Shown here: positions 11,115-57,751 of the stretch, piece by piece
How the letters are laid out: the number at the start of each line of letters is the position of its first letter
Numbering within the stretch: position 1 is the first letter of the stretch
Assembly: GCA_964410105.1 (NCBI GenBank)
Contig: CAYPFY010000003.1
Location: 16,754-80,753, forward strand
Length of the DNA stretch: 64,000 bases
Direction of reading: 5' to 3'
Origin: an uncultured Chlorobiaceae bacterium
GTDB lineage: Bacteria; Bacteroidota; Ignavibacteria; UBA10030; SZUA-254
Notes under the pieces: model-generated
Told to the model about the DNA's origin: nothing
Databases searched by the model: none
What the model saw: the letters and a program-made list of their open reading frames with translations, nothing else
Made by a program: the position numbers and the translations under genes

Positions 11115-11128
11115 TCGAGGGAGCCGAC

Positions 11129-11950: not shown

Positions 11951-12043
11951 GGAGGCAGAATCTTAACGGAAGATACCTATTCCAGCCGCCATTTTCAAGA
12001 ATTTTAAACGGCTCACGGCTCCTGAATGCGGGCGGAGCTCATC

Positions 12044-12072: not shown

Positions 12073-12078
12073 GAATTG

Positions 12079-29570: not shown

Positions 29571-29847
29571 GGCGATGGGATGGTAGCAAAATAGTCGAGA
29601 AAAGTCAACTGCCTCTGTCAGAAAAGCGGCGGAATGTCAGTGAAATCGCCATTTTCTGACATGCTGACAGAGTCGATGCGTTCCTCAATTAAGGGTCATG
29701 CATAAGAATCCCGGAAAAACGACTGTTTTGGCTGGTAACACAGATACTGGGGGCTGGCACAGGCATTGTAAGAGAAAGTGTGTGGATTTTAAAATCCGGC
29801 CGGCATGCCCGGACGGATTATCGAATTTTTCAAAGGAGAGAAATACA

Positions 29848-36989: not shown

Positions 36990-37480
36990 AAAAACTTTTT
37001 CTCTTCGCCCTGGTGATTGCATCCTGTTCGCGCAAGGACGAAGCGCTGTTATACAAAGAAGGGCGCGAGGCGGAATCCCGGAAAAACTATCAGCTCGCCG
37101 CCGAGCGGTTTGAAGACATTGTCGACAGATTCCCCTCACGCCCTTACGCGGAGAGCTCGCTCGTCCGGCTTGCAGACATTTACACGAATGGCGCCAAGGA
37201 TGTTCCCAAGGCGGTTCGAGCCTACCGCCGTTACTATCTCATGTTCCCCGAGAGCAAACAGGCCCCTACGATGCTTTTTCTCTCGGGTTTTCTGTACAAT
37301 AACGATCTCCATCAGCTGGACAGCGCGAGATCGGTTTATGAAATTTTCCTTTCACACTATCCCCATCACGAGCTCGCGGCATCCGCGAAGTTCGAGCTCG
37401 AAACTCTCGGGAAAGATCCCGGGGCAGCGCTCGAACCGAGGGTGAGCTCGGGCGATTCCGGGCGGGCCGGAAGGCAGTGA
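36986..37480 (+). CDS. small TPR-like lipoprotein
   Basis: Lipobox MKKLFLFALVIASC. The rest is helical TPR-like repeats (YQLAAERFEDIV..., YAESSLVRLADIY...). It is translationally coupled on both sides (ATGA and GTGA overlaps). Confidence 0.6.
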   Translation: MKKLFLFALVIASCSRKDEALLYKEGREAESRKNYQLAAERFEDIVDRFPSRPYAESSLVRLADIYTNGAKDVPKAVRAYRRYYLMFPESKQAPTMLFLSGFLYNNDLHQLDSARSVYEIFLSHYPHHELAASAKFELETLGKDPGAALEPRVSSGDSGRAGRQ

Positions 37481-38379
37481 CCCCCCAGGACTACCGAAAG
37501 TTTTTACGGCCGGAGGTCGTCGCCAAGCTCGCCAATATGGAACTGGTGGCGCGCCTCGTCGTCGAGGGGTTCATCACGGGGCTCCACAAAAGCCCCTACC
37601 ACGGCTTCAGCGTCGAATTCGCCGAGCACCGGCAGTATATGCCGGGCGACGAGGTGAAACATATCGACTGGAAGATATTCGGAAGGACGGACCGCTACTA
37701 CATCAAACAATTTGAGGAGGAGACGAATCTCAAGTCGTATCTCATCGTCGACGCAAGCAAGTCGATGGCCTACGCTTCGGAAGGACATCCCACCAAGCTT
37801 GAGTACGCCTGCTACATCAGCGCCGCACTCGCCCACCTCATGGTCCAGCAACGCGATGCCGTCGGCCTCACAACATACGACGAGAATGTCCGGACCTATA
37901 TGCCTCCGCACGCGACGAAGGGCTATCTCACGGAGATCCTGAGGCAGCTTCAAAACCTGACCCCCGGCCAGAAGACCCGGACGGCAAATTCCCTTCATCA
38001 GGTCGCCGAACGCATCAGGCGCCGCGGACTTGTGATCGTCATGAGCGATCTGTTCGATTCGCCCGGCGACGTCATGAAGGCGCTCCGTCACTTCCGGCAC
38101 AAGAAAAATGAGGTGATCGTGCTCCAGATCCTCGATCCGATGGAACGGAGCTTCGCCTTCGGCAGGGATGCCATCTTCAAGGACATCGAAACGTCGGAAG
38201 AGCTCGCGACGCAGCCCTGGCATATTCAGAAATCATACCAGGAGGAAATGAAGCGGTTCCTGGAAAAACTCAAGAAGGAGTGCCGGGAGAATAAAATCGA
38301 CTACGCGCTGCTCGATACCACCACCCCCTTCGACGTCGCCCTTTTCGAGTATCTGCACAAACGGCAGAAATTGGGGTAA
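37477..38379 (+). CDS. DUF58 domain protein (vWA-like; MoxR/Bat-operon associated family)
   Basis: The DUF58 core is LHKSPYHGFSVEFAEHRQYMPGDEVKHIDWKIFGRTDRYYIKQFEEE...LIVDASKSM. The gene has a GTG start. Confidence 0.8.
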   Translation: MTPQDYRKFLRPEVVAKLANMELVARLVVEGFITGLHKSPYHGFSVEFAEHRQYMPGDEVKHIDWKIFGRTDRYYIKQFEEETNLKSYLIVDASKSMAYASEGHPTKLEYACYISAALAHLMVQQRDAVGLTTYDENVRTYMPPHATKGYLTEILRQLQNLTPGQKTRTANSLHQVAERIRRRGLVIVMSDLFDSPGDVMKALRHFRHKKNEVIVLQILDPMERSFAFGRDAIFKDIETSEELATQPWHIQKSYQEEMKRFLEKLKKECRENKIDYALLDTTTPFDVALFEYLHKRQKLG

Positions 38380-38509
38380 GTCCGGTGTGCAGACAAGAGT
38401 CCGTCCTCTAACCGGAAACCCGTCGGTCCAGCGTCTTCCCGCTCCGGGCTCGCAGCATTGACCGGCTTTGCGTAGGAGCAACGTTTACACCGTGTGAGGG
38501 AGAGATTTT

Positions 38510-38959
38510 GTGAGATCGAATCTGGTAATCATAGTCGTGCTCGCGACTTCTCTGAGCTGCACCGGGCCTGCCGGGTCCGAAGGGCCGATGGGGGAAGGCC
38601 TCGCATCCCTCTCCGACCCGGAGATAATGCCGACCGTCATCTATACGAATCCTGCCAATAATGCGACCGGCCGTTTGGCGGACTTCACGAACCTCGTCGC
38701 AGTTCGGTTGAATTAGGTCGTGGACGTTAGCCCCATCAGACCATCGGTGATGCTCTCATGTCCCGTCGGAGATGTATTGTTTGATACCACAGCGATCCCC
38801 GCACAGAATACGGACGCGGCCGGCCTCGGCCCGATCGATGCGAGCACTTCCTCCTTTCATTTTCTTTGGAAAATATCCCAACAGTATTCTCCCCGCATGG
38901 ATTCTTCGGCAACCGGGGCCAACAGCAACCCCTCAAAACTCCATTCTTATTCCGGTTGA
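38510..38959 (+). pseudogene. remnant of a secreted/lipoprotein gene with a Big_5/SbsA-type Ig-like domain, interrupted by an in-frame TAG
   Basis: Two ORF-track entries (38510-38716 and 38720-38959) lie in the same frame and are separated by a single stop. The combined product has a signal peptide with a Cys (LATSLSC) followed by PTVIYTNPANNATG...VAVRLN*VVDVSPIRPSVML. That pattern resembles the P-x-V-x-x-x-P-x-x-G-A-T-x-V ... F-x-x-x-M beginning of SbsA-type Ig domains. It sits at the edge of the lower-GC island. Confidence 0.3.
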
Positions 38960-39084
38960 CCCCCGAACCGTATTTCAGGGTGCTGAGCTGCCCCACCCTG
39001 AAATATGAAGACCCCAGCATCAAAGCAGCAGGCAAAGCTTCTTAGCAGATTCGAGAGCGTGTTGTTGGCGAAAGAGAAATTCAG

Positions 39085-39459
39085 ATGAAGAGATTCACGG
39101 GACGGAAAGGAATGTGCTGCAACTCTGCTATGCAGTCGAAAGATATTCCGAAATATTGCAAGCTCGATTTGATCGGAGAGGAGTTGTTGAGGATGGCAAT
39201 TACCAAAGTGGGACTTTCTGCTCGCGCGTACGATCGCATCCTTAAGATTGCAAGAACCATTGCCGATCTCGCCTGTTCAACCAATGCACATCCCGAACGC
39301 ATCAGCGAAGCGATTCAGTATAGGAGATTGGACAGGGATCTGCGGCAAGCGCAACTGAGCAATAGTTTCCGCCATGATATTGCTCCAATGATACTTAAAC
39401 AAAAAAATCCTGCCCTCTCGATACTACTGATTGAGAGCAGGATTGTCCCCTGCCGTTAA
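39085..39459 (+). pseudogene. orphan 3' fragment of a comM/yifB (Mg-chelatase-like AAA+ ATPase) gene, copy 1
   Basis: Residues ...GEELLRMAITKVGLSARAYDRILKIARTIADLACSTNAHPERISEAIQYRRLDR match the extreme C-terminal Mg_chelatase_C helix bundle of YifB/ComM (E. coli ...LGLSIRAWQRLLKVARTIADIDQSD...EAVSYRAIDR). No AAA+ or Lon-like N-terminal part is present upstream. Confidence 0.55.
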
Positions 39460-39505
39460 GTGGTTGCTTCCTCAGCCTAAGGTCTTCTCACCATACTGTT
39501 TCGTG

Positions 39506-40378
39506 TCACTTCACGCGTTGAATAGTTATTCGAGCCACGGGATTCTGCCATCCGTGCAGAGAGGGACTTAGATTTCCTACTCCGAGGATGCCCCGATGGT
39601 GAGAGATGACATCGTTCGTTGCGGTGCGATTGTTGCCGTCTGGCGGCATGGAGACGGGACCGATTGAACCACATGGATCGACGATGCTCGTTGAGAGTTC
39701 ATCGTTCGCTTCGGTGCCAGCATCGTAGCCATTTGTGTAGAAGACCTTCGATTTATAGCCGCCAGGAAGTTTTACACCATCAAGGCCTGTGAAGCCATCG
39801 TTAGTGCAGATAAGCATCGTAGCCACGGAAAGACGCTTTGCTTGATCTGCCGTGGTGATTCGGAATGTTCGGGAATTGGGTCCCGGACCGCCCACCCGAT
39901 GTATCGGCGCATTGATGACAACAACGTCGAACACACCTGCGCGAGTTTTCAGATCTGTTTCCGCCACGCTCGGATCGCCATTTTCGGCAATCAACCGAAT
40001 CCCCTCTGAAGCGGCAGCGCCAATTTGAAATAGATGGACGTTTTTTGTATGGGTTGCGATCACGCCCGGTGAAAACGGTTGACCAGTCGTAAGATTCTCA
40101 ACCGTCACGTCGTACATCTTAAGGGCATCGTCATCCGCCGACTCCGTGTCATCGTCACTCTCTGATCCAGCGGTTTCTTTTGCAAGATTTTGTTGAGAGC
40201 CTATTCCTGGATCCGTCGAGGCGTGCATATCGCCGGACTTGCTCGAGCAACCGGATAGAACCAAAAGCGCCACAGGGACGGAAGCAACCACTAGGATCAC
40301 TAACGATGGAAAAACTGCGGTGAGTTTCATAATCGATCTCCTTGATATGTCAGAGAGAGAGTTGTGAACTGAATACAC
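39506..40378 (-). CDS. lipoprotein with a spondin_N-like domain
   Basis: Signal peptide with lipobox (LLVLSGCSS) and an acidic low-complexity linker. The block MYDVTVENLTTGQPFSPGVIATHTKNVHLFQIGAAASEGIRLIAENGDP recalls bacterial Spondin_N proteins (TxxNLTxxQPxSPxxxxTH). The family assignment is from memory and was not searched. Confidence 0.5.
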   Translation of the reverse strand: MYSVHNSLSDISRRSIMKLTAVFPSLVILVVASVPVALLVLSGCSSKSGDMHASTDPGIGSQQNLAKETAGSESDDDTESADDDALKMYDVTVENLTTGQPFSPGVIATHTKNVHLFQIGAAASEGIRLIAENGDPSVAETDLKTRAGVFDVVVINAPIHRVGGPGPNSRTFRITTADQAKRLSVATMLICTNDGFTGLDGVKLPGGYKSKVFYTNGYDAGTEANDELSTSIVDPCGSIGPVSMPPDGNNRTATNDVISHHRGILGVGNLSPSLHGWQNPVARITIQRVK

Positions 40379-40556
40379 AAGGTAGCATATACCGTCACAA
40401 AACTATTGCGGAAGCTTAACATTTTAATAAAGGTTGAAACGATTGCGGCTCGACCCAGTCACCACGCATTTTAACCGGCCTTCACTCATGATACTTTTGT
40501 GACAAATTTTCCTATCTTTATACGAGAATGAGCACCGAAAATTCATACAGACAACG

Positions 40557-41279
40557 GTGAAACGAGTACTCATCATTGAAGACGATACAGCGATTGCCAA
40601 CCTGGTGGAAATCCACCTCAAGGATTTGGAATGTGCTGTCGACAAGGTTGCTGACGGCGCCGAAGGGCTCACGAAGGCGTGGGCGGGACGGCATGACCTG
40701 ATCATTCTTGACCTTATGCTTCCCAGCATGAGCGGACTTGACGTCTGTAAAGAGATTCGATCTGTGAACAGGACTATTCCAATTCTCATGCTGACTGCTC
40801 GATCGGAGGAATTTGATCGTGTCCTCGGACTTGAATTAGGTGCCGACGATTACTTGACGAAACCGTTCAGTGTGCGTGAGCTCGTGGCTCGAGTTAAGGC
40901 GATCTTTCGCCGGGTTGAGGTTGCAAAGCAGGAGCAACAGCAAGGCGAGATGAACGCACTAACCATCGGAGAGATTGCAATTGATCCTCTCAAGCGACGA
41001 GTAACTCTGAAGGGTGAGAAGATCGAGCTGACCGCTAAAGAATTTGACCTGCTCCGAATCTTCATGCAGAATCCTGGCCGAACCTACTCTCGACAGGAGC
41101 TTCTGGACATCGTGTGGGGGTACCACTTCGACGGGTACGATCATACCGTGAACTCACACATCAACCGACTTCGGACAAAAATCGAAACAGATCCATCCAA
41201 GCCGAAGTACATTCTCACCGTCTGGGGCGTCGGATACCGATGCGCCGAAGTAGAAGAAATTGAGTTAGGAAATGCCTAG
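40557..41279 (+). CDS. OmpR-family response regulator (second copy, on the island)
   Basis: The protein contains RVLIIEDD, DLIILDLMLPSMSGLDV, LMLTARSEE and GADDYLTKPFSVRELVARV, plus a winged helix. It is divergent from the lipoprotein gene across a 178-bp intergenic region. Confidence 0.9.
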   Translation: MKRVLIIEDDTAIANLVEIHLKDLECAVDKVADGAEGLTKAWAGRHDLIILDLMLPSMSGLDVCKEIRSVNRTIPILMLTARSEEFDRVLGLELGADDYLTKPFSVRELVARVKAIFRRVEVAKQEQQQGEMNALTIGEIAIDPLKRRVTLKGEKIELTAKEFDLLRIFMQNPGRTYSRQELLDIVWGYHFDGYDHTVNSHINRLRTKIETDPSKPKYILTVWGVGYRCAEVEEIELGNA

Positions 41280-42735
41280 ACTCTTTTTCAAGAGTCTGTA
41301 CTGGAAGATTTCCGCCGTCTTCCTCCTGCTACTTCTCCTTCTCGGTATCGCCTTTAACTTTATCACGCTGTTCTCTACTGAAATGTACTTCCAGGAGGGA
41401 AATCAGCGGCTTCATCGTCGTTTTGCCAGCTTCGTTGCAGATTTATTACAATCGTACAGCAGTACCTCGCTTGACCAAGGTGAAATTCAAAAGGTGTTCG
41501 AACAGGTGAACAAGATGAATCCGAGCGTCGAGGTGTATCTCATCGATGAGCAGGGAACCATCCTCTACTCATCTACGCCGTTTGAGAACTTGAAGCTTCA
41601 TCAGATTGACATCCAACCCATTAAGAAATTTCTTGCTGTAGAAGGTAAACAATTTACGATGGGAGAAGATCCGAAAGGTATCCATAAAGAAAAGGTGTTC
41701 ACCGCCGCTCCGTTCGTCTTTCATGAGAAAAAGGGTGGCTACGTGTACGTGATTTTAGGCGGTGAGGAATATGATTCAGCTCTTCAGTTTATTCAACAAA
41801 ACTACATTCTCCGTCTCGGCGTTAAAACGCTCATCATCAGTTTGATTGCCGCAGCGATCATCGGCTTGCTGAGCATCGGATTCCTCACCCGTCGTTTATA
41901 CAGGTTGACAAAGGCAATGACTGAATTCAGTATCGGCAACTTTTCACAGCGGGTTTGTAACGTGAGCGATGATGAGATCGGCACAGCCGCACGCACATTC
42001 AATCAGATGGCAGAAATGATTCAACGGCATGTTGATGAGCTTGCGGCAATCGATTCGTTGCGTCGGGAACTTATTGCGAATGTTTCGCACGATCTCCGCA
42101 CCCCGTTGTCATCAATGCAGGGGTACGTTGAAACAGTGATTCTTAAAGACGCATCTCTTACGACCAGTGAGCGTCAAAAGTACCTTCAGACGATTCTTGA
42201 GAGCACGATCAAACTCAACGCGCTTGTGCAAGAATTATTTGAGTTGAGCAAACTCGATGCAAGGCAGACATTGCCAAAGCCGGAGTCATTCTCGCTCTCG
42301 GAACTCGTCCAAGATGTCGCGCAAAAGTTTCACCTGCGGGCGGAGAAGAATAATATTCAGATTGATACGTCTCTCCCCAACGATCTTCCGTTCGTTCGAG
42401 CAGATATTGGGATGATCGACCGAGTATTGCAGAACTTAATAGAAAACGCCATCAACTACACGGCAGCAAATGGACGCATAACCCTGCACGTAGCCCGCGT
42501 TGAGGACAAATTGCGCGTTGATATTGCCGATACAGGATGCGGTATTCCTGCGAGGGACCTTGCCAGCGTGTTTGACCGTTTTTACCGGGCCCGAAGTAAC
42601 CGCTCAGCCAATGATGGCACAGGTCTGGGGCTGGCGATTGTGAAGAAGATATTGACGCTCCACGGCGAGGATATTCACGTGGAGAGTCGTGAGCATGTTG
42701 GGACCAGATTCTACTTCACGTTACCATTGTCCTGA
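41272..42735 (+). CDS. sensor histidine kinase (second copy, on the island)
   Basis: Two transmembrane segments flank a periplasmic domain of about 150 aa. The H-box is VSHDLRTPLSSM. The N-box is LIENAINYTAANG. The G-boxes are ADTGCGIP and GTGLGLAIV. It overlaps the response regulator by 8 nt. Confidence 0.9.
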   Translation: MPRLFFKSLYWKISAVFLLLLLLLGIAFNFITLFSTEMYFQEGNQRLHRRFASFVADLLQSYSSTSLDQGEIQKVFEQVNKMNPSVEVYLIDEQGTILYSSTPFENLKLHQIDIQPIKKFLAVEGKQFTMGEDPKGIHKEKVFTAAPFVFHEKKGGYVYVILGGEEYDSALQFIQQNYILRLGVKTLIISLIAAAIIGLLSIGFLTRRLYRLTKAMTEFSIGNFSQRVCNVSDDEIGTAARTFNQMAEMIQRHVDELAAIDSLRRELIANVSHDLRTPLSSMQGYVETVILKDASLTTSERQKYLQTILESTIKLNALVQELFELSKLDARQTLPKPESFSLSELVQDVAQKFHLRAEKNNIQIDTSLPNDLPFVRADIGMIDRVLQNLIENAINYTAANGRITLHVARVEDKLRVDIADTGCGIPARDLASVFDRFYRARSNRSANDGTGLGLAIVKKILTLHGEDIHVESREHVGTRFYFTLPLS

Positions 42736-42764
42736 AATTTAACACGTTATGCCCTTCTGATATG

Positions 42765-42988
42765 CAGTCGCAAGATATTCAGAGCTAGTGTAGGCTCGAT
42801 TCAGCGGAAGAAGAGTTGTTAAGAATGGCAATTACGAAACTGGGGCTTTCCGCGCGAGCTTATGATTGCATTTTGAAGGTGGCACGCACCATTGCTGACC
42901 TCGCGGCTTCAACCGATATTCGTCCCGAGCATATTAACGAGGCACTACAGTCCAGAAGCGCGGACAGGAATTTGTGGCAGAGTGGATA
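42765..42988 (+). pseudogene. orphan 3' fragment of a comM/yifB gene, copy 2 (diverged direct repeat of copy 1)
   Basis: The fragment translates to ...EEELLRMAITKLGLSARAYDCILKVARTIADLAASTDIRPEHINEALQSRSADRNL, which is the same Mg_chelatase_C end as copy 1 in the same orientation. Identity to copy 1 is roughly 75% at the nucleotide level over about 215 bp. It begins about 30 nt after the histidine kinase stop. Confidence 0.5.
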
Positions 42989-43399
42989 GCGATCAGAACA
43001 GCAGCACTTGAAAGAAATTTGATTGACTAAGTTTTAGCATCATTCAGATTGACTGATACTTGTATTTCTTGAGTAAAGTGAACAAATTTGCACTCGTTTA
43101 TCGCATGAATCTCACCCCATTTTTCACATCGTGACAATTGAATTATGAAGTTCAGTGCTCGGAACAGATCATAAGGCAGGATCACTGCAGTTGAGGATCC
43201 TCAGCTCAAAGTCGGTGATACGGCTTAGGCCGTCATCAAATCTACGAAACTATTATCGGAAAGGATGGTCTCCCAATGTCCTCTTTCTGCCCTCGGAGAG
43301 TTGCTAATGTTGTTCAATGAGACAATGAGCCCGTGGATGGCTGATCCAGCGAAATAAGGAGTCAGTACACATCATTCGGTCGATTCCTGACTCGGTTAT

Positions 43400-45712
43400 T
43401 CACTCCATTCCTAACTTCCTCAAAAACACACCGTAGCGTGTGTCTGAGCGCAGATTTTTGAACCGCGGATCGACCTTGACCCATGGCAAGTGGTCGTCAC
43501 CCTCCTCAATTCCCTTGTTGAGATATTCGAATGCTTTGTCATTATCCCCCGCCCGTGCATACAATACGGAAAGTGTCCAGGGATAGTGGTAGCCCTCCTT
43601 CTCGAGATAAAGCTCGATAGACTTCAGCACAAATCCATTCCAGCCCGAATGTGAGAACGCACGTCGCAGTTCCACTGTGTCAGCAGGACTTGACCAGAAT
43701 TCTGATCCGGCGAGGTAGTGAGAAACGGCTTTGTCATAAAACCCTTTCTGTTCATCAATCAGTCCTGATAGCCAGACCCAGGGTGTGACCTGCAGCTGTT
43801 CAAGGGCAAGATCACTCCGACCTAAATGGAAGTACGAGAGCGCCAACTGCTGACCTAAAAGATTTGACAGCGGATCACGCTGGTAGGCAAGCCTATTCTG
43901 CTTGATCGCCTCCTCGAACCGTCCCATCGCGAGCAGGGCATAAGCGTATTCCATGTAAGACCACGCGTATCCGGGGTTAAGTTCGATGGCCTTTCTGAAT
44001 TCACTCTCGCCATCTGCAAACTTCCAATCGGAAAACACCTTTACATAGCCGAGCGGGCCATGCGCCTCACCGAGGGAACTGTCTATCTCCAGAGCTTTTG
44101 TTGCAGCCGCCCGTATCTTCGGTACTGCCTCCCTCGCGGGCATCAGTTCACCGGAGACTAGAAGGTATGCTTCAGCAAGTCCAACGTACGCTGAGGCATA
44201 TGATGGGTCTATCTCGATTGCCTTTTGGAAAAATTCTACTCCTTTGCTAGATCCGTTTGGCCCCGTGCAATTAATTTCATAGCGACCTTTCAGATAGAAT
44301 TGGTACGCTTCAGTGTTCTCAGTATAACGTCTGGTGAGCTTTTGCCGCTCTTCGCCGGTCAACCTCACCCTCAAATTCTGCAGAATATTGTTCGCAATTT
44401 CCTCTTGAACAGAAAAGATATCGGCAAGCTTTCGGTTGTAGTGATCTCCCCAGATCTGACTCTTGTCATGGGTGTCCACAAGTTCGGTCTTGATTGAAAT
44501 CTCGTCCCCTCGGCTGAGAACTCTGCTCATCAGCACGGCACGGACGCCGTTTAAATCCTTGCTGACTGCCTGCGGGTCAATCAGCCGGTGCTTGTATCCT
44601 ATCACGGAGCTGAACGCCGTCACCCTCACATTGGGCAATCGAGAAAGATTGTCAATGATGCTTTCTGCAACTCCATCGCTGAAGTACTCGAGGGTTGTAT
44701 CCGCGCTCTCATTGACGAACGGCAATACTGCAAGATCGATCCCATAAGAGTGTCGTGGAAATAAGAACAAGCTTATGGCAGCAACCAACACAGCGAGACC
44801 GATTCCCCCAACATATAGGTGACTTCGCTTTACCCGATAGATCATTGCCCTGATCGGATGGAGTTTCAGGGTGGAAGTCTCAAGCTCCGTCGCAATCTTC
44901 TTGAGGTCCGTGATCATATCCTGAATTCGTTGGTATCGATTGCGAGCGTTCCGCTGCATTGCTCTACCGGCAATCCCGACCAATTTCAACGGGACCTCCG
45001 GACGGACCTTTAGAATCGGCACTGGGTCGTCGTGGAGGATCTGGTAGATGATCGCCTGCTCATATTCGCCGGGAAACGGAAGCTTTCCGGTCATCATCTC
45101 ATACATCATGACGCCGAGCGACCAGATGTCGGTCCGCTGATCGACCTCCTCGCCGCGCGCTTGCTCGGGTGACATATATATGACCGTCCCGACAATCGAA
45201 CCGAATTTGGTGAGACGTGTTTGACCGGAGAATCTAGCGATTCCGAAATCGAGAATTTTCACGACGCCATCGCCGGTCACTATGATATTTTGAGGCTTGA
45301 TGTCACGGTGGATGATGCCGGACTGATGCGCCTTTGATAATCCTTGCGAGATCTGAATCCCGATTTCGACGGCTTCCTTTACGTCAAGAGGGCCCCGGGC
45401 GATTTTCTTTGCGAGCGTCTCACCTTCATAGTATGCCATGCTGATGAACAATTGCCCCGGCCCTTCGGGACCATGTTCGGTCTCCCCGATTTCATAGATT
45501 GTGCAGATGTTCGGATGGTCAAGTGCTCGCGCCGCCCGCGCCTCGTGAATGAACCGTTCTCTTGCTTCCGGATCGGCTGTGACGTCTCTCGGCAGAAACT
45601 TCAGCGCAACAGGGCTCTTAAGTCTTGAGTCCTCCGCCTTGTAAACTATGCCCATCCCGGCTTCGCCGAGTTTTTCCACAATCCTATAGTGCGAGATTGT
45701 TGAGCCGATCAT
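43400..45712 (-). CDS. transmembrane Ser/Thr protein kinase with an extracytoplasmic TolB-N-like module and TPR repeats
   Basis: The N-terminal Hanks kinase has GxGxxG-like YRIVEKLGEAGMGIVYKA, catalytic HRDIKPQNII, DFGIA and the activation-loop GTVIYMSPE. A transmembrane helix at about aa 300 is followed by LPFVNESADTTLEYFSDGVAESIIDNLS and then several TPR-like repeats (AYVGLAEAYLL..., EAIKQNRLAYQRDP...). Confidence 0.85.
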   Translation of the reverse strand: MIGSTISHYRIVEKLGEAGMGIVYKAEDSRLKSPVALKFLPRDVTADPEARERFIHEARAARALDHPNICTIYEIGETEHGPEGPGQLFISMAYYEGETLAKKIARGPLDVKEAVEIGIQISQGLSKAHQSGIIHRDIKPQNIIVTGDGVVKILDFGIARFSGQTRLTKFGSIVGTVIYMSPEQARGEEVDQRTDIWSLGVMMYEMMTGKLPFPGEYEQAIIYQILHDDPVPILKVRPEVPLKLVGIAGRAMQRNARNRYQRIQDMITDLKKIATELETSTLKLHPIRAMIYRVKRSHLYVGGIGLAVLVAAISLFLFPRHSYGIDLAVLPFVNESADTTLEYFSDGVAESIIDNLSRLPNVRVTAFSSVIGYKHRLIDPQAVSKDLNGVRAVLMSRVLSRGDEISIKTELVDTHDKSQIWGDHYNRKLADIFSVQEEIANNILQNLRVRLTGEERQKLTRRYTENTEAYQFYLKGRYEINCTGPNGSSKGVEFFQKAIEIDPSYASAYVGLAEAYLLVSGELMPAREAVPKIRAAATKALEIDSSLGEAHGPLGYVKVFSDWKFADGESEFRKAIELNPGYAWSYMEYAYALLAMGRFEEAIKQNRLAYQRDPLSNLLGQQLALSYFHLGRSDLALEQLQVTPWVWLSGLIDEQKGFYDKAVSHYLAGSEFWSSPADTVELRRAFSHSGWNGFVLKSIELYLEKEGYHYPWTLSVLYARAGDNDKAFEYLNKGIEEGDDHLPWVKVDPRFKNLRSDTRYGVFLRKLGME

Positions 45713-46225
45713 AGGGGTGCATTCACCAGCCGATTTTTTGAGTGTTCCGTTTTTTCACGTACTGATCACGCCCGGAAATTCAGTCGATAAGAGTATGACA
45801 CAACTGAGCAATCTGTTGGTTCATTCCCACATGACTTCTTCGGGCATTTGTCAAGGAAACGATTACAGGATAAGCGGATGATTGACGCGCTCCACGTGAG
45901 ATGGTTTATTGGGATATGGGTTGGCCGATCGTGATTCTCCTCTACCCCCGAAAATCGAGAATCGAAATGAACGAAACGACTGAAACTAAGAAGAATATAT
46001 CTGATTGTCAAAACTAACAACTCGTGATCGAAAAACCAACGAAGTTTGTCCGCGGGCAGTGACTTTGCGAACATGGCCGACGATGGACGATAGCACCGAT
46101 CGAGGCCGGATCCAGGGGCTTTTGTGCCATGAAGGTGACATGGCAAGAAGGCACCAGACCCTTCCTCTTTCGCTCTCGTTCGCTACGGGGAACTGAAGGC
46201 GCCCGCACGCGGGATCGCCCTGTAA

Positions 46226-49147
46226 TTGCATGTTTCTGGCCCATTCGATAAATTGACATCGAAGGTCTCGTTCCCTTCTCACTTTTTCCCTTGGAAAACT
46301 TTGGAAACGCTCGTCGTCAAGGGCGCCCGCGTCCATAATCTGAAAAATATCGACGTGGAGATGCCCCGCGATAAACTGATAGTCATCACGGGCCTCTCCG
46401 GCTCCGGCAAATCGAGTCTTGCGTTCGATACGATTTACGCCGAGGGGCAGAGACGGTATGTCGAAAGCCTCTCCGCGTACGCCCGCCAGTTTCTCGGCCT
46501 CATGGAAAGGCCCGATGTCGATAAAATCGAGGGGTTGAGCCCCGCGATATCGATAGAGCAAAAGTCGGTCTCCCATAACCCCCGCTCCACAGTCGGTACC
46601 GTCACCGAGATCTACGACTACCTGAGACTCCTTTTTGCCCGGGTCGGGATCCAGCATTGTTACAATTGCGGCCGGAGAGTCCAGAGGCAATCAGTCGACC
46701 AGATCATCGATGCCGTCATGTCGTACTCTTCCGGCTCGAAGATCCACATCCTTGCGCCCGTCATCCGGGGGCGAAAAGGCCATTACCGTGAACTTTTTGA
46801 GGAAATCCTTCGGGAAGGCTTCCTTCGCGCGAGGGTCGACGGCGAGATCAGAGAGATTTCGCGGGGGATGCAGGTCGACCGCTATAAGGTGCATAATATC
46901 GAGATCGTCGTGGATCGGCTCTCCGTGAAGGGAGATATGCGCAGCCGCATTGCTGATTCCATCGAAACAGCTCTCCGGATGGGGTCCGGGCTGGTCATCA
47001 TCGACTCCGGAGCCAAGGAACAGCTTTTCAGCCAGCATCTCGCCTGCCTCTACTGCGGGATAAGCTATGATGAGCCCGCTCCGAATTCTTTTTCGTTCAA
47101 TTCGCCCTATGGCTCATGCCCTTCCTGCAGCGGGCTCGGCGAAACAAAGGAGTTCGATCTGGACCTCATCATGCCGAACCGCTCACTTTCCATTAACCAG
47201 GAGGGGCTCGCTCCGCTCGGAAAGCCGCGCGACACATGGCTCTGGCGACAGGTCCGGGCGGTGGCTTCAAGATTCCAGGCGGATCTCGACCAACCCCTTT
47301 CCCAGCTTCCAAAGAACTTTGTCGATGTCCTCATCAAAGGGGGAGGGAATGAAAAATTCGACATTCGTTACACCTACTCGACGGGCCGCATCGCCACGTA
47401 CCGGCAGCGGTTCGAGGGTCTGCTGAAGATGCTGAAGCATTACTACGACCAGACCTCCTCCGAGGGAATCCGGCAATGGGTGGAGTCTTATATGCGCACG
47501 AAAGCCTGTCCCCTGTGCGGGGGAGGACGGTTGCGCCGCGAGAGCCTCGCCGTCCGCCTTGTCGACTCCGAAACCGCCCGTGAAGTCAATATCCGCGATC
47601 TGGTGCAATTCTCAATCCGGGAGGCTTTCGGTTTTTTCTCACAACTGCACCTGAGCGCCCGCCAGATGGAGATCGCCCGGCAGGTTTTGAAGGAAATAAC
47701 GCAGCGGCTCGGTTTTCTCCTCAACGTCGGCCTCGATTACCTCACGCTTGACCGCTCCGCGCGCACCCTTTCCGGAGGAGAAGCGCAGCGCATACGGCTT
47801 GCCACCCAGATCGGCTCACGCCTCGTCGGCGTCCTCTACATCCTCGACGAACCGAGCATCGGACTTCACCAGCGGGATAACGTGAAGCTGATCGACAGCC
47901 TCAAGGAGCTGAGGGATATGGGTAACACGGTCATCGTCGTCGAGCATGACAGGGAGATGATCCGCTCCGCCGATTACCTTGTCGACCTCGGACCCGGCGC
48001 CGGCGAACACGGAGGCCATGTCGTCGCGACAGGGAAACCCTCCCGGCTCCGGATGGGAAAATATGACGGCGCTTCGTCGTCGACTGCCGAATATATAACC
48101 GGGAAGAGAATCATCGAACTTCCCAGGAGCCGGCGGGACGGTTCGGGCAATGTCATTAGGCTCCGGGGTGCCCGGGGGAATAACCTGAAATCGGTGACGC
48201 TCGCGGTCCCCCTGGGAAAATTCGTGTGCATCACGGGGGTGAGCGGCTCGGGGAAATCGACGCTTATTTCAGAAACCCTTTACCGGATTTTGTCCAGAAA
48301 GTTTTATAAGTCAAAAGACGTCCCGCTCCCCTACGGTTCCATTGACGGCCTCGCCTATGTCGACAAGGTGATAGAGATCGACCAGTCCCCCATCGGACGT
48401 ACTCCCCGCTCAAACCCGGCGACTTATACCGGCTTATTCACGTATATCCGGGATCTCTATGCGCAACTTCCCGAGGCGAAGATACGGGGCTATAAGGTGG
48501 GCCGGTTCAGCTTCAACGTGAAGGGGGGACGCTGCGAAGAATGCCAGGGGGACGGAGTCCGGAAAATTGAAATGAATTTCCTGCCCGACGTCTATGTCCT
48601 CTGCGAAGTCTGCAAGGGAAAAAGATATAACAGGGAGACGCTCGAGATTCTGTTCAAATCGAAATCCATCGCAGATGTTTTGAATATGACCGTCGAGGAG
48701 GCCGTCACTTTTTTCAGCGAAATCCCCCGCCTCCGCCGAAAGCTCGAAACCCTGCGAGATGTCGGCCTCGGTTATATCAGGCTCGGCCAGCAGGCAACAA
48801 CCCTCTCCGGCGGGGAAGCCCAGAGGGTCAAACTCTCAACAGAACTCTCCAAGGTGGGGACCGGAAAAACTCTCTATATCCTTGATGAGCCCACGACCGG
48901 GCTTCATTTTGAGGATATCCGGATGCTCCTCTCGGTTCTGAATAAGCTCGTCGATAAGGGAAATACCGTCGTCGTCACCGAGCATAATCTCGACGTGATC
49001 AAGACGGCCGACTGGATCATCGACCTGGGACCGGAAGGGGGGAAGGAGGGGGGTGAAATCATCGCCGAGGGAACTCCAGAAGCGGTTGCCAGGAACCGAC
49101 GCTCCTATACGGGGATGTTTCTGAAGGGGGAATTGAAACTCTCGTAG
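46226..49147 (+). CDS. uvrA: excinuclease ABC subunit A
   Basis: Two ABC ATPase modules are present ([12 protein letters not shown] and [11 protein letters not shown]) with zinc-finger Cys clusters. The probable true start is the in-frame TTG at about 46301 ([31 protein letters not shown]...), matching canonical UvrA N-termini. The 25 residues upstream of it are non-homologous. Confidence 0.9.
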
Positions 49148-49159: not shown

Positions 49160-50212
49160 TTGCCGAAACCTACCATGGCGGGTTTCTCACAGAAAGATAA
49201 AACACGCCTCATCCCGGTTTTCAAGGCAATCCTGACCGGCGCATACACCCCGCTCGACCTGCGGGAATTCGTCCTTCTTTGTCACGATCTCGCTCTTCCT
49301 TTTCTTCGGAAAAAGATTCATCAGGGCAAGCTTAACCTCGCCTCGATCCGTCTCAATGAACATGATGCGGTCTATGATTGCCTCGCCGACCTTTTCGCAC
49401 GCGATGATCAGGGGAATTTCCAGTCCATCCGTAAGTTTTTCGACGCTCAGCTTCCCGATTGGGAATCCGGCGATGCCGATGGCCTCATCGTCACCCTCCG
49501 CCATCTCGTCTTCGCCAAGATTAATAACGGCATCATCAGGCTTTATTCCGAGGCGGATCCCGCGCTCGGAAAAATTCTCAGGAACATGAAGAAAGCGCTG
49601 GAAACCAGGTCACTGTTCGAGCAGACGACGAGATTCGGCGATGTCTTCCTCGTCCCTGCCGGAGCCGACCCGCTCTTTCATCTGCCCCCCCTGGCACCAG
49701 ATCAGATCCAGCGTGCCTTCTCTCTCGCCGTTCTTTTGCACGACAATGTCCCGACGATGCTCTCCAAACTCCGGTCCGTCCTCATCGACCAGAACGATTG
49801 CCAGAGATCGGTACTTATGATGACCGCAGCCCTGATGTTCAAGGAAATCTATGAGTTGGGCGGGGAGGAGGCGTCCCAACCCAACGTTGCTGAGGAACGC
49901 CTGGAGAGAGAGCGTCTGGGCAAAATTATCACAAAAATTCGGGGGGAAATGTGGGCCGAACTGCATCCAGGCTATGTCGGGAAGGGGAAGTGCAGCGAGG
50001 AGATTTTTGCAAAATACCTGGACGCCATGGATGATATACTCCAGGGGTTTCTCGCCGATGATAATCCGGACGGATTTACTTTTTACGAGCATCTGAGGGC
50101 AAAAATGCCCGAGCTCACTCCCGGGGAGTACAGGAAAAATCACCGGATCACGCTTGAATATTTTGCCAAGGTCGGCCGGGAACGCATCCGAAAGGAACTG
50201 AAATCTGAGTGA
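49160..50212 (+). CDS. hypothetical protein (no recognisable domain), first gene of the FG-GAP/anti-sigma-like module
   Basis: 350 aa, predicted soluble and helical. It starts 13 nt after uvrA. No sigma-70 region 2 or region 4 signature could be identified by eye. Confidence 0.5.
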   Translation: MPKPTMAGFSQKDKTRLIPVFKAILTGAYTPLDLREFVLLCHDLALPFLRKKIHQGKLNLASIRLNEHDAVYDCLADLFARDDQGNFQSIRKFFDAQLPDWESGDADGLIVTLRHLVFAKINNGIIRLYSEADPALGKILRNMKKALETRSLFEQTTRFGDVFLVPAGADPLFHLPPLAPDQIQRAFSLAVLLHDNVPTMLSKLRSVLIDQNDCQRSVLMMTAALMFKEIYELGGEEASQPNVAEERLERERLGKIITKIRGEMWAELHPGYVGKGKCSEEIFAKYLDAMDDILQGFLADDNPDGFTFYEHLRAKMPELTPGEYRKNHRITLEYFAKVGRERIRKELKSE

Positions 50213-50256
50213 TCTCCGTTGCCATTGTCACCGGTTAGTTTACTGATAAAGCGCAT

Positions 50257-51633
50257 ATGAAGCATATCGAAGAAAAGATACTGGAGCGTTATGTCCTCAG
50301 GGCGGACGGGGGGACGGACCCCGCGATTGAGGCGCATCTGAAGGAATGCCCCGGTTGCGACGCGCTGAGGCAACAGATCAAGTCCTATTACGACGAATTC
50401 TCCGAAATCCGCCGCGAGCGGACTGTGGAAAACCCGGAGGCGATCACGCTCAGGAATATGCGCGTCGCGCCTTTTGAAACATTGCGCATGCCTGTCACGC
50501 TTCCGGCCCGCGTCGTTCTGTTCGCCATCCGCCATCCCGCTTACTCCGTCATGAGCCTTGCCGCGGCCATCGTTCTTGCGCTCGTGCTTCTCTACCCCGG
50601 CAAGGCGCCCAAGGATCTGAATCCTTCGTATGCGCGCCCGAAGGATGAATTCCTCGTCGTCTATAACAAGGACGGCGAAGAGCTCTGGCGTAAACATGTC
50701 GAGAAGGGGTGGGACATCGAACTTGCCAAATGGCCGCTGAACCGCCGATCGATTTTTACCGCCGACGCGGACGGCGATGGAAAGAACGAAGTTTTCTGCA
50801 TCTATGGCGGCATCTACGATAATCCGACTCTGAATGCCGTGTTCTGCTACAACCCGGACGGCTCAGAGCGGTGGAAGTATCAGTATCATCGGAATATCAG
50901 TTTTGGGTCGGAATCTTTCGTCGATAACTACTTCTTTAACTCGATGGTCGTCGGCGATTTTGACCGGGACGGTCACCTCGATATTATTGCCGAGCTGGAA
51001 CATGCCAAGCGCTATCCCAACGTGATCATCCGTCTGGACGCAAAAACGGGCGATTTTCTGGGAGAGTTCTGGCACCCGGGGAATGTCGAGTACATGGCCC
51101 ACAGGGATATCGACGGCGACGGCGTCGAGGAGATTTTCCTGACAAGTTCCAACGCGTTCGCCGGCGCCGCACCCCTCCTCGTGCTTGATCCGCGTGCGAT
51201 CAAGGGGGTGGCCCCCGTTCCGCCCGAATTCGCTCCCCCGGGAGTTCCGCAGGGTCTTGAAAAATACTATCTCCTCTTCCCTCGGAGCGGCCTGGAAAAA
51301 TCAAAAGATTTTCTCTCTACCGCGGGCGAGGTGATGTACTTCAAGTCCGACGGGACTCTTGAACTGATCGTATCCGATCACTTCAAAAACGGAACGTCTT
51401 TTGCGCTCAATTTTTACCTCGATTCGACGATGCGCTGCACGAAGGTGCTCGCCACCGAGCCGAATCTGCAATACGCGCGCAGGCTCCAGTCCGAGGAGCT
51501 GACGCTCCGGAAGATCACCGAGAGCATCCTGGACTCGCTCCGGACGTCGATTCAGTATTGGGATGGGGAAAAATTTGTGAACGAGCCGACGATGAATAAG
51601 TACTATAAGTCGGCCCTTAAACCCCTGCCATGA
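50257..51633 (+). CDS. anti-sigma-factor-like membrane protein: N-terminal zf-HC2 zinc finger, one transmembrane helix, and an extracytoplasmic FG-GAP-repeat domain
   Basis: The N-terminus ILERYVLRADGGTDPAIEAHLKECPGCDALRQQI has the H-x3-C-x2-C motif of zf-HC2 anti-sigma factors. The transmembrane helix is VVLFAIRHPAYSVMSLAAAIVLALVLLY. The ectodomain has FG-GAP-type Ca-binding repeats (DADGDGKNE, GDFDRDGHLDII, DIDGDGVEEIF). Confidence 0.65.
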   Translation: MKHIEEKILERYVLRADGGTDPAIEAHLKECPGCDALRQQIKSYYDEFSEIRRERTVENPEAITLRNMRVAPFETLRMPVTLPARVVLFAIRHPAYSVMSLAAAIVLALVLLYPGKAPKDLNPSYARPKDEFLVVYNKDGEELWRKHVEKGWDIELAKWPLNRRSIFTADADGDGKNEVFCIYGGIYDNPTLNAVFCYNPDGSERWKYQYHRNISFGSESFVDNYFFNSMVVGDFDRDGHLDIIAELEHAKRYPNVIIRLDAKTGDFLGEFWHPGNVEYMAHRDIDGDGVEEIFLTSSNAFAGAAPLLVLDPRAIKGVAPVPPEFAPPGVPQGLEKYYLLFPRSGLEKSKDFLSTAGEVMYFKSDGTLELIVSDHFKNGTSFALNFYLDSTMRCTKVLATEPNLQYARRLQSEELTLRKITESILDSLRTSIQYWDGEKFVNEPTMNKYYKSALKPLP

Positions 51634-53084
51634 AGACGGCCGTGGCTGTCTTTCTTGTCCTGGCGTGGATCACCCCTTCCGAGGCCCTCCATGTGAAAAA
51701 AGTCTCGCCCGGCCAGAACGCGCTCAATGTCCAAAAAAATTCCCGGATCGCTGTGACGTTTGATGATCCAATCACTCCCGCGGCTGCCGCCGGACAGACA
51801 ATACGCGTGGTCGGGAGTCTCAGCGGGTTTCACCTCAACAACTGGGTCGCTTATGACGCAGCCACCCGAACCCTTACGATCAGCGCGCGGTCGCCTTTTG
51901 CGGTCGGCGAGGTGGTGACCGTTATTCTGACGACGGGTCTGACAGATTCATCCGGCACTCCCATGCTGCGGCCTTTTGTGTGGAGCTTTACGATTCGAGC
52001 TGAACGGGGGACGGGCACCTTTGCCGAGACGCAACGCGTCCCGGTCGGCTCCGAGATAAATTCGGTTGCCGCATGCGATCTGGACTCCGACGGCGCCCTC
52101 GACCTTGTCAGCTCCAACGGCCGGGGTAGCAGCATCTCCACTCTCAGGAACGACGGACACGGCTCGTTCACCCTCCATCAGACTGTCGAGACCGGCATGA
52201 ATACGCTCGACGCTTTCCCCATCGATATCGACGCCGATGGATTTGCGGACGTCGCGGCAGTTCACTGGAATGCCAGCGATCTCTATATACTTCACAACGA
52301 CGGCCACGGTAACCTGACGACCCGGTCACGGATCGAACCCGGCTACATACCGTACGATGTCGCCATCGCGGATTTCAACGGCGACGGAAACCTCGATATA
52401 GCTCTCCCCAATCAATGGGGGAACGACGTTGCGGTGCTCACGAATGACGGCACCGGGTCTTTCACGAAATCCCAGGCGCTCCCCTCCGGGGTGATGCCCA
52501 GCGCCATCTGCGTAGGGGATTTCGATAACGACGGGGATATCGACTTTGCAGTCGTCAATTTCAGTCTCAACAATGTGACGATTTTCACCAACGATGGAAA
52601 AGGGATTTTTAGCGAAGCGTCCTCGGTTGATGTGGGGAGCAACCCGCTATCGATTGCGGCCGGCGATTTCGACGGGGACGGTTTTCTGGACCTCGCCGTT
52701 GTGAATCACAATATGGTGAGCGTCTCGATCTTGAAAAACGACGGCACGGGACACTTCCGCCATTCACAGACTTTTTTTACCAAGGGGAGGCCATTCTGGG
52801 TCGTCTGCGGGGACTTTGACGCCGACGGCGACCTCGACCTCGCCGTGTCGATATTTTCCCCCGGCGGTGTTACAATTCTCCGGAATGACGGTCACGGGAA
52901 TTTCATCTCTGGAGGCACTATACCGACAAGCCCCATGAATCTGCGCCTCGCCTGCGGCGACTGGAACGGTGACGGGGCTCTCGACATCGCAGTCGCCAAT
53001 AGAAACCCAAACGGCGTCCTCGTTCTCACAAACCAAAAATCGAAACCCCGCCAGGAATCCCTAAAACAGTCCGGTTTCCGCTGA
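51630..53084 (+). CDS. secreted protein: SbsA-type Ig-like (Big_5) domain followed by a 7-bladed FG-GAP beta-propeller
   Basis: Signal peptide MKTAVAVFLVLAWITPSEA. The Ig-like domain begins VSPGQNALNVQKNSRIAVTFDDPITPAA. Seven repeats follow, of the pattern D-x-D-x-D-G-x-x-D (CDLDSDGALDLV, IDIDADGFADVA, ADFNGDGNLDIA, GDFDNDGDIDFA, GDFDGDGFLDLA, GDFDADGDLDLA, GDWNGDGALDIA). The start overlaps the stop of the upstream gene (ATGA). Confidence 0.75.
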   Translation: MKTAVAVFLVLAWITPSEALHVKKVSPGQNALNVQKNSRIAVTFDDPITPAAAAGQTIRVVGSLSGFHLNNWVAYDAATRTLTISARSPFAVGEVVTVILTTGLTDSSGTPMLRPFVWSFTIRAERGTGTFAETQRVPVGSEINSVAACDLDSDGALDLVSSNGRGSSISTLRNDGHGSFTLHQTVETGMNTLDAFPIDIDADGFADVAAVHWNASDLYILHNDGHGNLTTRSRIEPGYIPYDVAIADFNGDGNLDIALPNQWGNDVAVLTNDGTGSFTKSQALPSGVMPSAICVGDFDNDGDIDFAVVNFSLNNVTIFTNDGKGIFSEASSVDVGSNPLSIAAGDFDGDGFLDLAVVNHNMVSVSILKNDGTGHFRHSQTFFTKGRPFWVVCGDFDADGDLDLAVSIFSPGGVTILRNDGHGNFISGGTIPTSPMNLRLACGDWNGDGALDIAVANRNPNGVLVLTNQKSKPRQESLKQSGFR

Positions 53085-53373
53085 TTCACCGGCGGTAGAC
53101 TTAAGGAACACCCCCCTGCAAAGAATTTTTTTTTGAAAATTCTCTGCAACCCTCCCCAACTGCCTGTATAAGGTACTAGAAGCGGTTACAGATTGACCGA
53201 TCACTCCTCTCGGAATATGGATCAGGGAGTAGAGGAGATGGGGAGAGGCAGATTAAATGCTGCCCTCCTCTCTATCCCCAAAGGGCTTGCGATCTCACCG
53301 CGCTAGGGGCCCGAATCGCATCAGGATTTTACAGGTGCGAATCACCGTACGTTTCTTCATAGGAGGGTTTTCC

Positions 53374-57633: not shown

Positions 57634-57683
57634 GAACAGCCTCCTCCTATGCCTTGTGGATTAGGGAAGAGGTGAGGCGAAGT

Positions 57684-57719
57684 GAGAAACCCCGGTGCAG
57701 CCGCATGCGCCGGGGTCTC
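57684..57719. terminator. GC-rich hairpin between convergent genes (possible bidirectional terminator)
   Basis: GAGAAACCCCGGTGC ... GCGCCGGGGTCTC is an imperfect inverted repeat. It lies between the 3' ends of the giant protein gene (+) and the glycosylase gene (-). It has no clean U-tract. Confidence 0.3.
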
Positions 57720-57751
57720 ACGCGTTTAGGGGGGATCTCCCGGGAAGAAGT

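Follow-up and report, generated by a model that had tools for sequence, protein, structure and literature searches.

A probable remnant of a comM-targeting cassette array upstream of uvrA in an uncultivated Ignavibacteriota lineage

Introduction

Integrative and conjugative elements (ICEs), as well as cis-mobilizable elements (CIMEs), accrete at the fda gene of Streptococcus thermophilus, and IMEX elements (integrative mobile elements exploiting Xer), such as TLC-phi with its helix-turn-helix (HTH) factor XafT, hijack the Xer recombinases of their hosts. Tandem accretion at the 3' end of a conserved gene is likewise known from the ssrA islands of Dehalococcoides (PMC3146451); the accretion of CIMEs and integrative mobilizable elements (IMEs) has been reviewed (PMC5704250), and islands specific to dusA and to trmE have been described (PMC4482086, PMC8409611). 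The comM gene is the target of Tn6022/AbaR, a Tn7-like element with TnsF, and of Tsy, which combines a tyrosine recombinase (YRec), an HTH protein and TnsF; both rely on TnsF to enter comM at its Walker B region, thereby splitting and inactivating the gene, Tn6022 with a 5-bp duplication (PMC11014353, PMC10293859). Here we examine a 64,000-nucleotide stretch of DNA (the window) from an uncultured Chlorobiaceae bacterium (assembly GCA_964410105.1, contig CAYPFY010000003.1, positions 16,754 to 80,753 of the forward strand), in which a low-GC island between a DUF58 gene and uvrA holds two fragments of the 3' end of comM. We propose that this segment, 38989-46155, is foreign DNA and probably a decayed, non-autonomous array of two cassettes, which derives from a comM-targeting element family and lies away from comM.

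A foreign segment between DUF58 and uvrA

Read from the host's Big_5 remnant on the left to the upstream region of uvrA on the right, the locus has the following layout.

37477 to 38379, + strand: DUF58/VWA gene, the last conserved host gene on the left (Pfam DUF58, 6.8e-52)
38516 to 38988, + strand: pseudogene remnant of a Big_5 Ig-like lipoprotein, residues ~6-169 of 465 (tblastn, Pfam Big_5)
38989 to 38991, unstranded: left junction, where the host pseudogene meets ComM fragment A (limits of homology)
38992 to 39459, + strand: ComM 3' fragment A, a pseudogene (Pfam Mg_chelatase_C, 5e-23; tblastn; NCBIfam YifB; reading of the sequence)
39506 to 40378, - strand: spondin-domain lipoprotein, cassette A (Pfam Spond_N, 2.8e-10; NCBIfam NF038123, 7.7e-47)
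40489 to 42735, + strand: promoter, OmpR-family response regulator (RR, 40557-41279) and HAMP/HisKA histidine kinase (HK, 41272-42735), cassette A (Pfam)
42750 to 42989, + strand: ComM 3' fragment B (Pfam Mg_chelatase_C, 2.5e-16; direct repeat; alignment; tblastn)
42990 to 43399, unstranded: AT-rich spacer (42.7% GC) that separates fragment B from the 3' end of the kinase gene and has no recognisable content
43400 to 45712, - strand: Hanks-type Ser/Thr kinase of 770 aa with a transmembrane segment and C-terminal TPR, cassette B (Pfam Pkinase, 2.1e-48, and TPR families)
46103 to 46155, + strand: conserved element-end remnant at the right island edge (nhmmer junction profile)
46226 to 49147, + strand: uvrA, with which the conserved host genes resume on the right (Pfam UvrA domains, synteny)

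The segment 38989-46155 has 49.4% GC against 57-58% in its flanks, and the wider interval 38400-46200, which the initial annotation had delimited as a low-GC island, has 50.0% against 58.1% in the rest of the window. In 1-kb sliding windows the GC fraction falls from 0.57-0.61 to 0.47-0.52 across ~38.5-46 kb, and of all 7.8-kb windows in the 64 kb, the one that begins at 38601 has the lowest GC. When three GC segments were fitted by maximum likelihood, the breakpoints fell at 38841 and 46040, with a log-likelihood ratio of 73.4 versus at most 14.7 in block-shuffled controls. At third codon positions (GC3) the five island open reading frames (ORFs) range from 0.51 to 0.59 (median 0.553), as against a median of 0.72 for the 42 other ORFs (Mann-Whitney p=3.4e-4), only 2 of which match the low values of the island. 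The correlation of Markov-normalised tetranucleotide z-scores with the rest of the window is 0.20-0.43 for 4-kb windows starting at 39001-43001, 0.38-0.51 at the two island edges and 0.53-0.73 elsewhere, save for a second dip at 50-58 kb; the strongest deviation in the window is that of the island. The long AT-rich intergenic spacers remarked upon at the outset are also borne out by their GC: beside the 42.7% of 42990-43399, we obtained 49.7% for 45713-46225 and 39.9% for 40379-40556. GC, GC3, tetranucleotide signature and segmentation thus all uphold the island as originally perceived, with a significant difference from the genome; its extent needs correction at the left, where the first 590 nt (38400-38988) have a host-like GC of 56-59% and are host DNA. 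As delimited by homology, the island extends from 38989 to ~46155 (7.2 kb).

We mapped the window proteins onto the DUF58-uvrA region of 80 Ignavibacteriota species representatives (loci L004-L083). The host belongs to an uncultivated lineage of this phylum, its DUF58 protein being 83% identical to that of the closest species representative. The block asparaginase-RsmB-BamD-like TPR-DUF58 is conserved in the 80 relatives. What follows is variable: uvrA comes directly after DUF58, with a gap of 20-230 bp, in ~35 of the 80; about 20 closer relatives have a Big_5 Ig-like lipoprotein gene (~465 aa) in between, in 1-3 tandem copies; and other relatives have different inserts of 0.8-8 kb. These inserts match the GC of their own genomes, whereas that of the window lies 8-9 points below its genome. 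None of the 80 has any island gene between DUF58 and uvrA, and the gene order seen in the window is therefore not one conserved across the clade, which answers the question, raised at the outset, whether rsmB-TPR-DUF58 is directly followed by uvrA in relatives. As far as clustering and BLAST comparison, without a Pfam scan, can show, no mobility genes are evident among the relatives' insert ORFs. The ~1.5-kb insert of close relatives, considered as a possible intact comM, proved to be the Big_5 lipoprotein gene. The DUF58-uvrA junction is in general plastic across the clade, with tandem Big_5 paralogues in L005, L018 and L034, and a 1010-aa hybrid histidine kinase in L017, L020 and L021.

Both boundaries of the segment are defined by homology. 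On the left, tblastn with the relatives' lipoprotein gene (L004:10958-12355) recovers the remnant in two frames (E 4e-18), with an in-frame stop at ~38717, a frameshift at ~38930, a host-like GC of 56% and the 3' two-thirds (~300 codons) missing; ~20 relatives have an intact copy of the gene, likewise between DUF58 and uvrA. The last position with lipoprotein homology is 38988 and the first with ComM homology is 38992 (38983 with a full-length query), which pins the junction to 38989-38991. The decayed gene previously noticed at the left edge is hence the N-terminal third of a Big_5 lipoprotein gene, which ends 3 nt before fragment A. By the same token, the insertion was correctly placed between DUF58 and uvrA, although it was not a simple one: it replaced the 3' two-thirds of a resident gene. 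On the right, the uvrA ORF as listed starts with TTG at 46226 and another gene call at 46361, with conservation among relatives beginning at ~46305; the true start is probably the TTG at 46301, judging from alignment with relatives and with E. coli UvrA.

ComM fragments and a conserved element end

Fragment A corresponds to ComM residues 393-512 at 63-65% identity (homologous span 38992-39342); an internal TAG interrupts it at 39043-39045, and the loss of its normal stop results in a 40-codon tail. Fragment B corresponds to residues 438-515 at 72-74% identity (homologous span 42750-42983), keeps the normal stop and begins 15 nt past the stop of the HK gene. Relative to the canonical fragments described below, the first 42 codons of A and the first 87 of B are missing; both are truncated and decayed. 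Together they form a direct repeat of 73% DNA identity, and both lie on the + strand, each ahead of its cargo, which is the orientation seen in arrays. Both are without the canonical start, the junction GCAACGCA/GCAATGAA and the preceding HTH gene, and the 5' part of comM is absent from the island. The initial annotation had recognised the two orphan fragments, which are confirmed by their Mg_chelatase_C domains, and had treated them as incidental; we find them to be the diagnostic feature of the island.

The right edge was recognised with an nhmmer profile built from 13 sequences spanning HTH gene, junction and ComM C-terminus. Within the whole window, the profile matches best at 46103-46155 (E 2e-4), a stretch that aligns with model positions 153-205 across the junction at 200/201 and so covers the final ~48 nt on the HTH side as well as the junction itself. 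This corresponds to the first ~17 codons of a minus-strand XRE-HTH gene and the junction motif, GGCACC as against the consensus GGCAAC, and the stub peptide PSCHVTFMAQKPLDPA fits the N-terminal consensus of the HTH proteins. The stub sits at the compositional boundary, ~145 nt upstream of the probable uvrA start. Support for its being a conserved XRE-HTH end with its junction is moderate. Beyond the stub (46089-46155), no further HTH-gene remnants were found in the window spacers. A third ComM fragment near 46228, where GCATGTTTCTGG resembles a fragment start, was unsupported by the profile search and is taken as chance.

comM-linked cassette arrays across Ignavibacteriota

When fragment A was used in a database search, the top matches were not full-length ComM but thousands of ORFs of 130-180 aa that comprise only the ComM C-terminus (66-77% identity), several of them labelled Ignavibacteria and sometimes two to a contig. 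They occur in arrays, wherein comM 3' fragments of the same orientation are separated by cassettes of 1 to ~10 unrelated accessory genes. For example, on a 101-kb contig (JGI 3300075153) an intact 514-aa comM is followed by three successive fragments in the order: comM; an 8-kb arsenic-resistance cassette ending in an XRE-HTH gene; a 160-aa fragment; cargo; a 105-aa fragment; cargo; a 53-aa fragment; and more cargo. Searches with full-length ComM revealed that at least 15 independent fragments begin exactly at residue 351 ("AMNPC"), the canonical fragment being 495 bp, or the last 165 comM codons. The comM 3' fragments starting at residue 351 that were located in individual loci are:

L084: 1250-1744 and 10034-10528
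L085: 4082-4570 and 9920-10414
L095: 625-1116 and 6586-7080
L153: 4455-4940
L177: 9998-10492
L178: 9980-10492

An artefact of gene calling or of tblastn boundaries is a disfavoured explanation of this breakpoint, because it is visible in the DNA alignment: at the opening of most residue-351 fragments, a conserved GCAACGCA stands in place of the GCGATGAATCC of intact comM. To the left of most junctions, a double-HTH XRE gene on the minus strand abuts the fragment with its 5' end, its TTG start being inside the junction. Genes of this type, encoding 110-160 aa, are:

L084: 819-1352, - strand
L085: 3606-4094, - strand
L095: 6155-6589, - strand
L107: 1646-2059, - strand

Their match to the VC1465/XafT family is sub-threshold (21.6 bits versus a cut-off of 70), a likeness that raises, and does not support, an IMEX-like mechanism. 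The fragments of L177 and L178 begin with GCA followed by ATGAATCC and have unrelated DNA to their left; thus, different element ends have the same 10-15-bp crossover region in common. Further, in L177 a complete canonical fragment and its array abut ordinary genes with no 5' part of comM, and ectopic arrays are hence not unique to the window.

A second class of repeat consists of only the last 20-36 comM codons and follows many intact comM genes at 0.7-10 kb downstream, with a single cargo gene in between:

L105: 12421-12480
L106: 4430-4498
L111: 3186-3248
L113: 11238-11345 and 12034-12141
L129: 1810-1893
L092: 20456-20524

In L106 and L111 such repeats bracket a single Fib_succ_major gene, whose product is secreted by the type IX secretion system (T9SS), with no integrase. 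The ORFs of 417-426 aa between comM and the short repeats (L106, L111, L113) were considered as integrases and turned out to be T9SS-secreted Fib_succ_major proteins.

The cargo census of the arrays is dominated by sensors and regulators, with TonB-dependent receptors and T9SS-secreted proteins also enriched. Recombinases turned up only in isolation: in L178 a tyrosine integrase is located 9 kb from a fragment, and in L170 there is a serine recombinase in the vicinity of the RR-HK orthologue. A phage origin is unsupported, as a scan of IMG/VR viral contigs for ComM C-terminal fragments gave one weak match and hence essentially no fragments. In a more distant clade, comM lies upstream of a conserved block whose gene sizes match nusG-rplKAJL-rpoB. 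Whole-word searches of the searchable literature gave no description of comM arrays in Ignavibacteria, and the array family appears to be undescribed.

Cargo of the two cassettes

All four cargo genes of the island are intact ORFs, and their types, like the module of fragment and element end, recur in other arrays. They probably add envelope and environment sensing and regulation. The spondin-domain lipoprotein, which the first reading of the sequence had named correctly together with the TPR Ser/Thr kinase (Pfam bears out both, and NCBIfam the former), has the lipobox LSGC, comprises 274 aa from its likely start and is divergent from the RR-HK pair.

The behaviour of the RR-HK pair within the phylum is that of a portable module of roughly 50% GC. 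Its closest orthologues (RR 84% and HK 73% identity) come from an Ignavibacteria metagenome-assembled genome (MAG) of ~50% GC, the same MAG as that of the relative L005, and the DNA shared with it is exactly the promoter, RR and HK (40489-42669). There (L170:6070-15544; GCA_016178595.1, JACOSY010000027.1), the pair forms part of an accessory segment, alongside a large serine recombinase of 498 aa, two small XRE-HTH genes and a 559-aa protein without a Pfam family; this segment is probably an intact integrative element with the same sensory module. A second, more distant copy (71%/67%) is found beside groES/EL on a 58%-GC contig (L173:9289-11482 and L174, run SRR12313479), where it is low in GC relative to its neighbours (GC3 0.61 versus 0.85 for groEL). 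Run SRR12313479 is also among the runs that yielded the window's DUF58 gene; if this contig is from the window's organism, the pair in the island would be a second, xenologous copy. The pair had been described as a paralogue of that behind nuo in the window. This holds at the level of the family, but with identities of 39% (RR) and 31% (HK) the two pairs are not recent paralogues.

The best non-self homologue of the kinase has 49% identity, and the named matches are from Bacteroidota, KSB1 and Eisenbacteria; the closest homologue, on a multi-Mb contig (P0137), has no comM nearby. Full-length homologues of 33-37% identity stand directly beside ComM fragments in L088, L095 and L178, as does a Tricorn-type Ser/Thr kinase in L084. 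Kinases are strikingly over-represented in array cargo: in L178:10611-18303, three different Ser/Thr kinase genes (TPR-type and Tricorn/PD40-type) follow in a row right after the ComM fragment. A defence role for the island kinase was considered and dismissed, the PADLOC matches (PD-T4-6, Mad6) covering only the generic kinase domain.

Origin of the island

Based on the above observations, we advance the following mechanism. The element family would target a fixed point in comM, codons A351-M-N-P-C, 165 codons before the stop, and each element would bring its own copy of these last 165 codons while pushing the previous 3' end downstream. With such a copy, integration would rebuild an intact comM. 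Repeated integration would then give rise to the order comM, cargo, minus-strand HTH gene, comM 3' fragment, cargo, and so on. Given the fixed breakpoint, the conserved end module and the intact comM at the head of the one array whose head was seen, serial site-specific integration is what one would expect if the elements carry a surrogate 3' end. In the window, cassette A would comprise fragment A, the spondin lipoprotein and the RR-HK pair, and cassette B would comprise fragment B, the TPR Ser/Thr kinase and the terminal HTH stub with its junction. This array, which lies upstream of uvrA and not beside comM, and which took the place of the 3' two-thirds of the lipoprotein gene, would have been gained after the lineage split from its closest sampled relatives. 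It might have arrived as an excised circle of one or two cassettes that a recombinase inserted at a secondary site, or by transfer of a block. Later deletions would have removed the 42 and 87 fragment codons, the HTH gene of cassette A, most of that of cassette B and part of the lipoprotein gene. Because the right end coincides near-exactly with an element junction, we favour a recombinase event at a secondary site followed by deletions. The initial annotation had left the choice between an old, ameliorating acquisition and the scar of a larger element. The truncated comM fragments that head the cassettes and the 53-nt end remnant fit a scar better; amelioration is not shown, and the RR-HK module is of ~50% GC in every host examined.

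Several points weigh against this proposal. Site-specific integration is deduced from the fixed breakpoint and not demonstrated. The window fragments start at residues 393 and 438, not at the canonical 351, and would belong to the family by their context and homology. The remnant at the right end is a short one, of 53 nt and 14.9 bits. Intact comM is absent from the 64-kb window, the host's own copy not having been seen. The RR-HK orthologues elsewhere are not beside ComM fragments, and this cargo of cassette A may have been recruited secondarily. Finally, the island encodes no recombinase, and no recurrent recombinase emerged from a census of 140 ORFs elsewhere, 70 of them array cargo and 70 from behind intact comM genes, whose view was limited to the 25 commonest families of each set, such that a single match could escape notice. 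With none in the island and none recurrent in other arrays, the cassettes look non-autonomous, being either mobilised in trans or relics. This agrees with the earlier statement that integrase, transposase and tRNA are lacking: Pfam detects no recombinase domain in any island ORF, and the 64-kb window has no tRNA. The spacers likewise gave no remnants of an L170-type serine recombinase or of the genes that neighbour the RR-HK orthologues.

The main rival to insertion at a secondary site is that a 7-kb piece of a donor's comM array, with both cassettes, was transferred as a block and joined by illegitimate or homology-facilitated recombination with random ends. This would account for the island's lack of an encoded recombinase, the truncation of both ComM fragments, and a left end at a non-canonical breakpoint within fragment A that is joined to the middle of a host gene. 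However, a right end within a few nucleotides of the conserved junction is unlikely for a random breakpoint, and the canonical fragment of L177 that abuts ordinary genes suggests that sites other than comM can be occupied; we regard block transfer as a serious but rather improbable alternative. Much less probable still is a relic formed in situ, whereby comM once lay between the lipoprotein gene and uvrA, gathered insertions and then lost its 5' part. The fragments are indeed co-oriented with the flanking operon, and a deletion demonstrably occurred at the left junction; yet comM is at this locus in none of the 80 relatives, the more distant clade has it upstream of the nusG-rplKAJL-rpoB-sized block, and the sequence to the right of the junction at 46155 is not comM.

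We also give little credence to the idea that the island consists of native accessory genes of weak expression, low in GC through relaxed selection or a local mutation bias. The RR-HK orthologues are relatively GC-low in every host examined, and the HK orthologues within the phylum have identities like those of core genes, as that idea would have it. Nevertheless, the genes are absent from this locus in all 80 relatives, the resident regulators of the window have a GC3 of 0.79-0.80, a host gene is cut at the junction, scars of mobile elements are present and the tetranucleotide signature is deviant even after Markov normalisation. Least probable of all, to the point of being negligible, is a chimera of two organisms formed in assembly or binning. 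While the source is a MAG, a single 11.9-kb contig from run SRR12313478 extends from DUF58 through the entire island into uvrA, a contig from SRR12313477 reaches from RsmB across the left junction to fragment B, and one from SRR12313481 covers the HK through part of the kinase gene, all with the same arrangement; in total, contigs from three runs besides that of the 11.9-kb contig cover parts of the island. The same arrangement having been assembled independently from several runs, we conclude that it is no assembly chimera.

Extending the proposal of a comM-targeting family beyond this locus, one could speculate, with less confidence than in the derivation of the island itself, that integrase-less cassettes inserting at the AMNPC codons of comM, a competence helicase gene, with a 495-bp replacement 3' end are widespread in Ignavibacteriota, that they are guided by the conserved XRE-HTH end module and mobilised by a recombinase in trans, from the host or a helper element, and that they also seed secondary sites, the window holding one such ectopic, decayed seed. 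We consider this a tentative, on balance doubtful, generalisation. If true, it would amount to an integron-like collecting of sensor-kinase, receptor and secreted-protein genes in Ignavibacteriota.

Other features of the window

The second region of deviant tetranucleotide composition, 50000-58000 (ORFs 50257-51633, 51630-53084 and 53257-57633), has a correlation of 0.39-0.52, and its GC is a little lower. Encoded there are FG-GAP/Big_5 proteins and a T9SS-secreted BNR/Sortilin protein of 1458 aa, and the deviation of the region may reflect the composition of repeat proteins instead of a foreign origin. Short GC dips (~52%) occur at 11000-12500 and 29000-30500; the former holds a 150-aa ORF (11555-12007; GC 0.497, GC3 0.46) without a Pfam family, and the latter sits upstream of the HSP70 gene (dnaK, 29698-31794). 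No Rfam family was found in the window, and promoter and terminator scans gave nothing notable.

Comparison with known systems

For the window's genome, the island is a small, dead one, which brought in an extra two-component system, a TPR Ser/Thr kinase and a spondin-domain lipoprotein at the expense of a surface lipoprotein gene, which it destroyed. Taken alone it is an ordinary remnant of modest interest; it is the comM-anchored arrays that deserve follow-up. Orphan comM fragments would not be noise but the footprints of recurrent cassette accretion at comM in an uncultivated phylum. Were the trans-acting recombinase to be identified, one would have a new system of site-specific integration, directed at a bacterial sequence that is conserved almost universally, and the fragments would also provide a simple marker for flexible-genome regions in Ignavibacteriota MAGs.

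The closest concept is accretion, in which islands and CIMEs collect at a conserved gene's 3' end and the displaced ends persist as repeats. What would be shared with these is: (i) site-specific insertion into a conserved gene, with a substitute gene end supplied by the element; (ii) displaced fragments that form direct repeats between cassettes; (iii) growth by accretion; and (iv) non-autonomous members without a recombinase. Measured against CIMEs, the island is without recombination genes and has one junction remnant, at the right, the left and internal sites being deleted. In contrast to them, the target would be the AMNPC codons of comM, the duplicated segment of 495 bp is unusually long, a divergent XRE-HTH gene forms the conserved end, no cis integrase is found in most arrays, and the window copy lies at a non-target site.

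Like integrons, the arrays consist of promoter-independent accessory cassettes without a recombinase, between which a repeated sequence that would bear the recombination site recurs. Unlike integrons, they have no IntI gene or attI seen beside them and no integrase family among those seen to recur there, the repeats are 495-bp gene fragments where integrons have attC hairpins, and the cassettes are often multi-gene, with their own promoters and in either orientation. With IMEX elements they share the lack of an integrase, a small HTH protein at the element end and the formation of arrays at one chromosomal site; in contrast, the target is not dif, the likeness of the HTH protein to VC1465/XafT is only generic and there is no evidence of Xer involvement. 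Both analogies would thus be functional only.

Finally, comM would be as specific a target here as it is for Tn6022 and Tsy, with pieces of comM flanking the element and, as in Tsy, a small HTH protein. Pfam finds no tnsA, tnsB, tnsC, tniQ or tnsF in the island, nor is there a tyrosine-recombinase domain in it. The break used by the family to which the island would belong differs from theirs in lying ~40 codons further downstream, and comM would be rebuilt. As comM is kept intact, the process would be distinct from that of the comM-targeting transposons.

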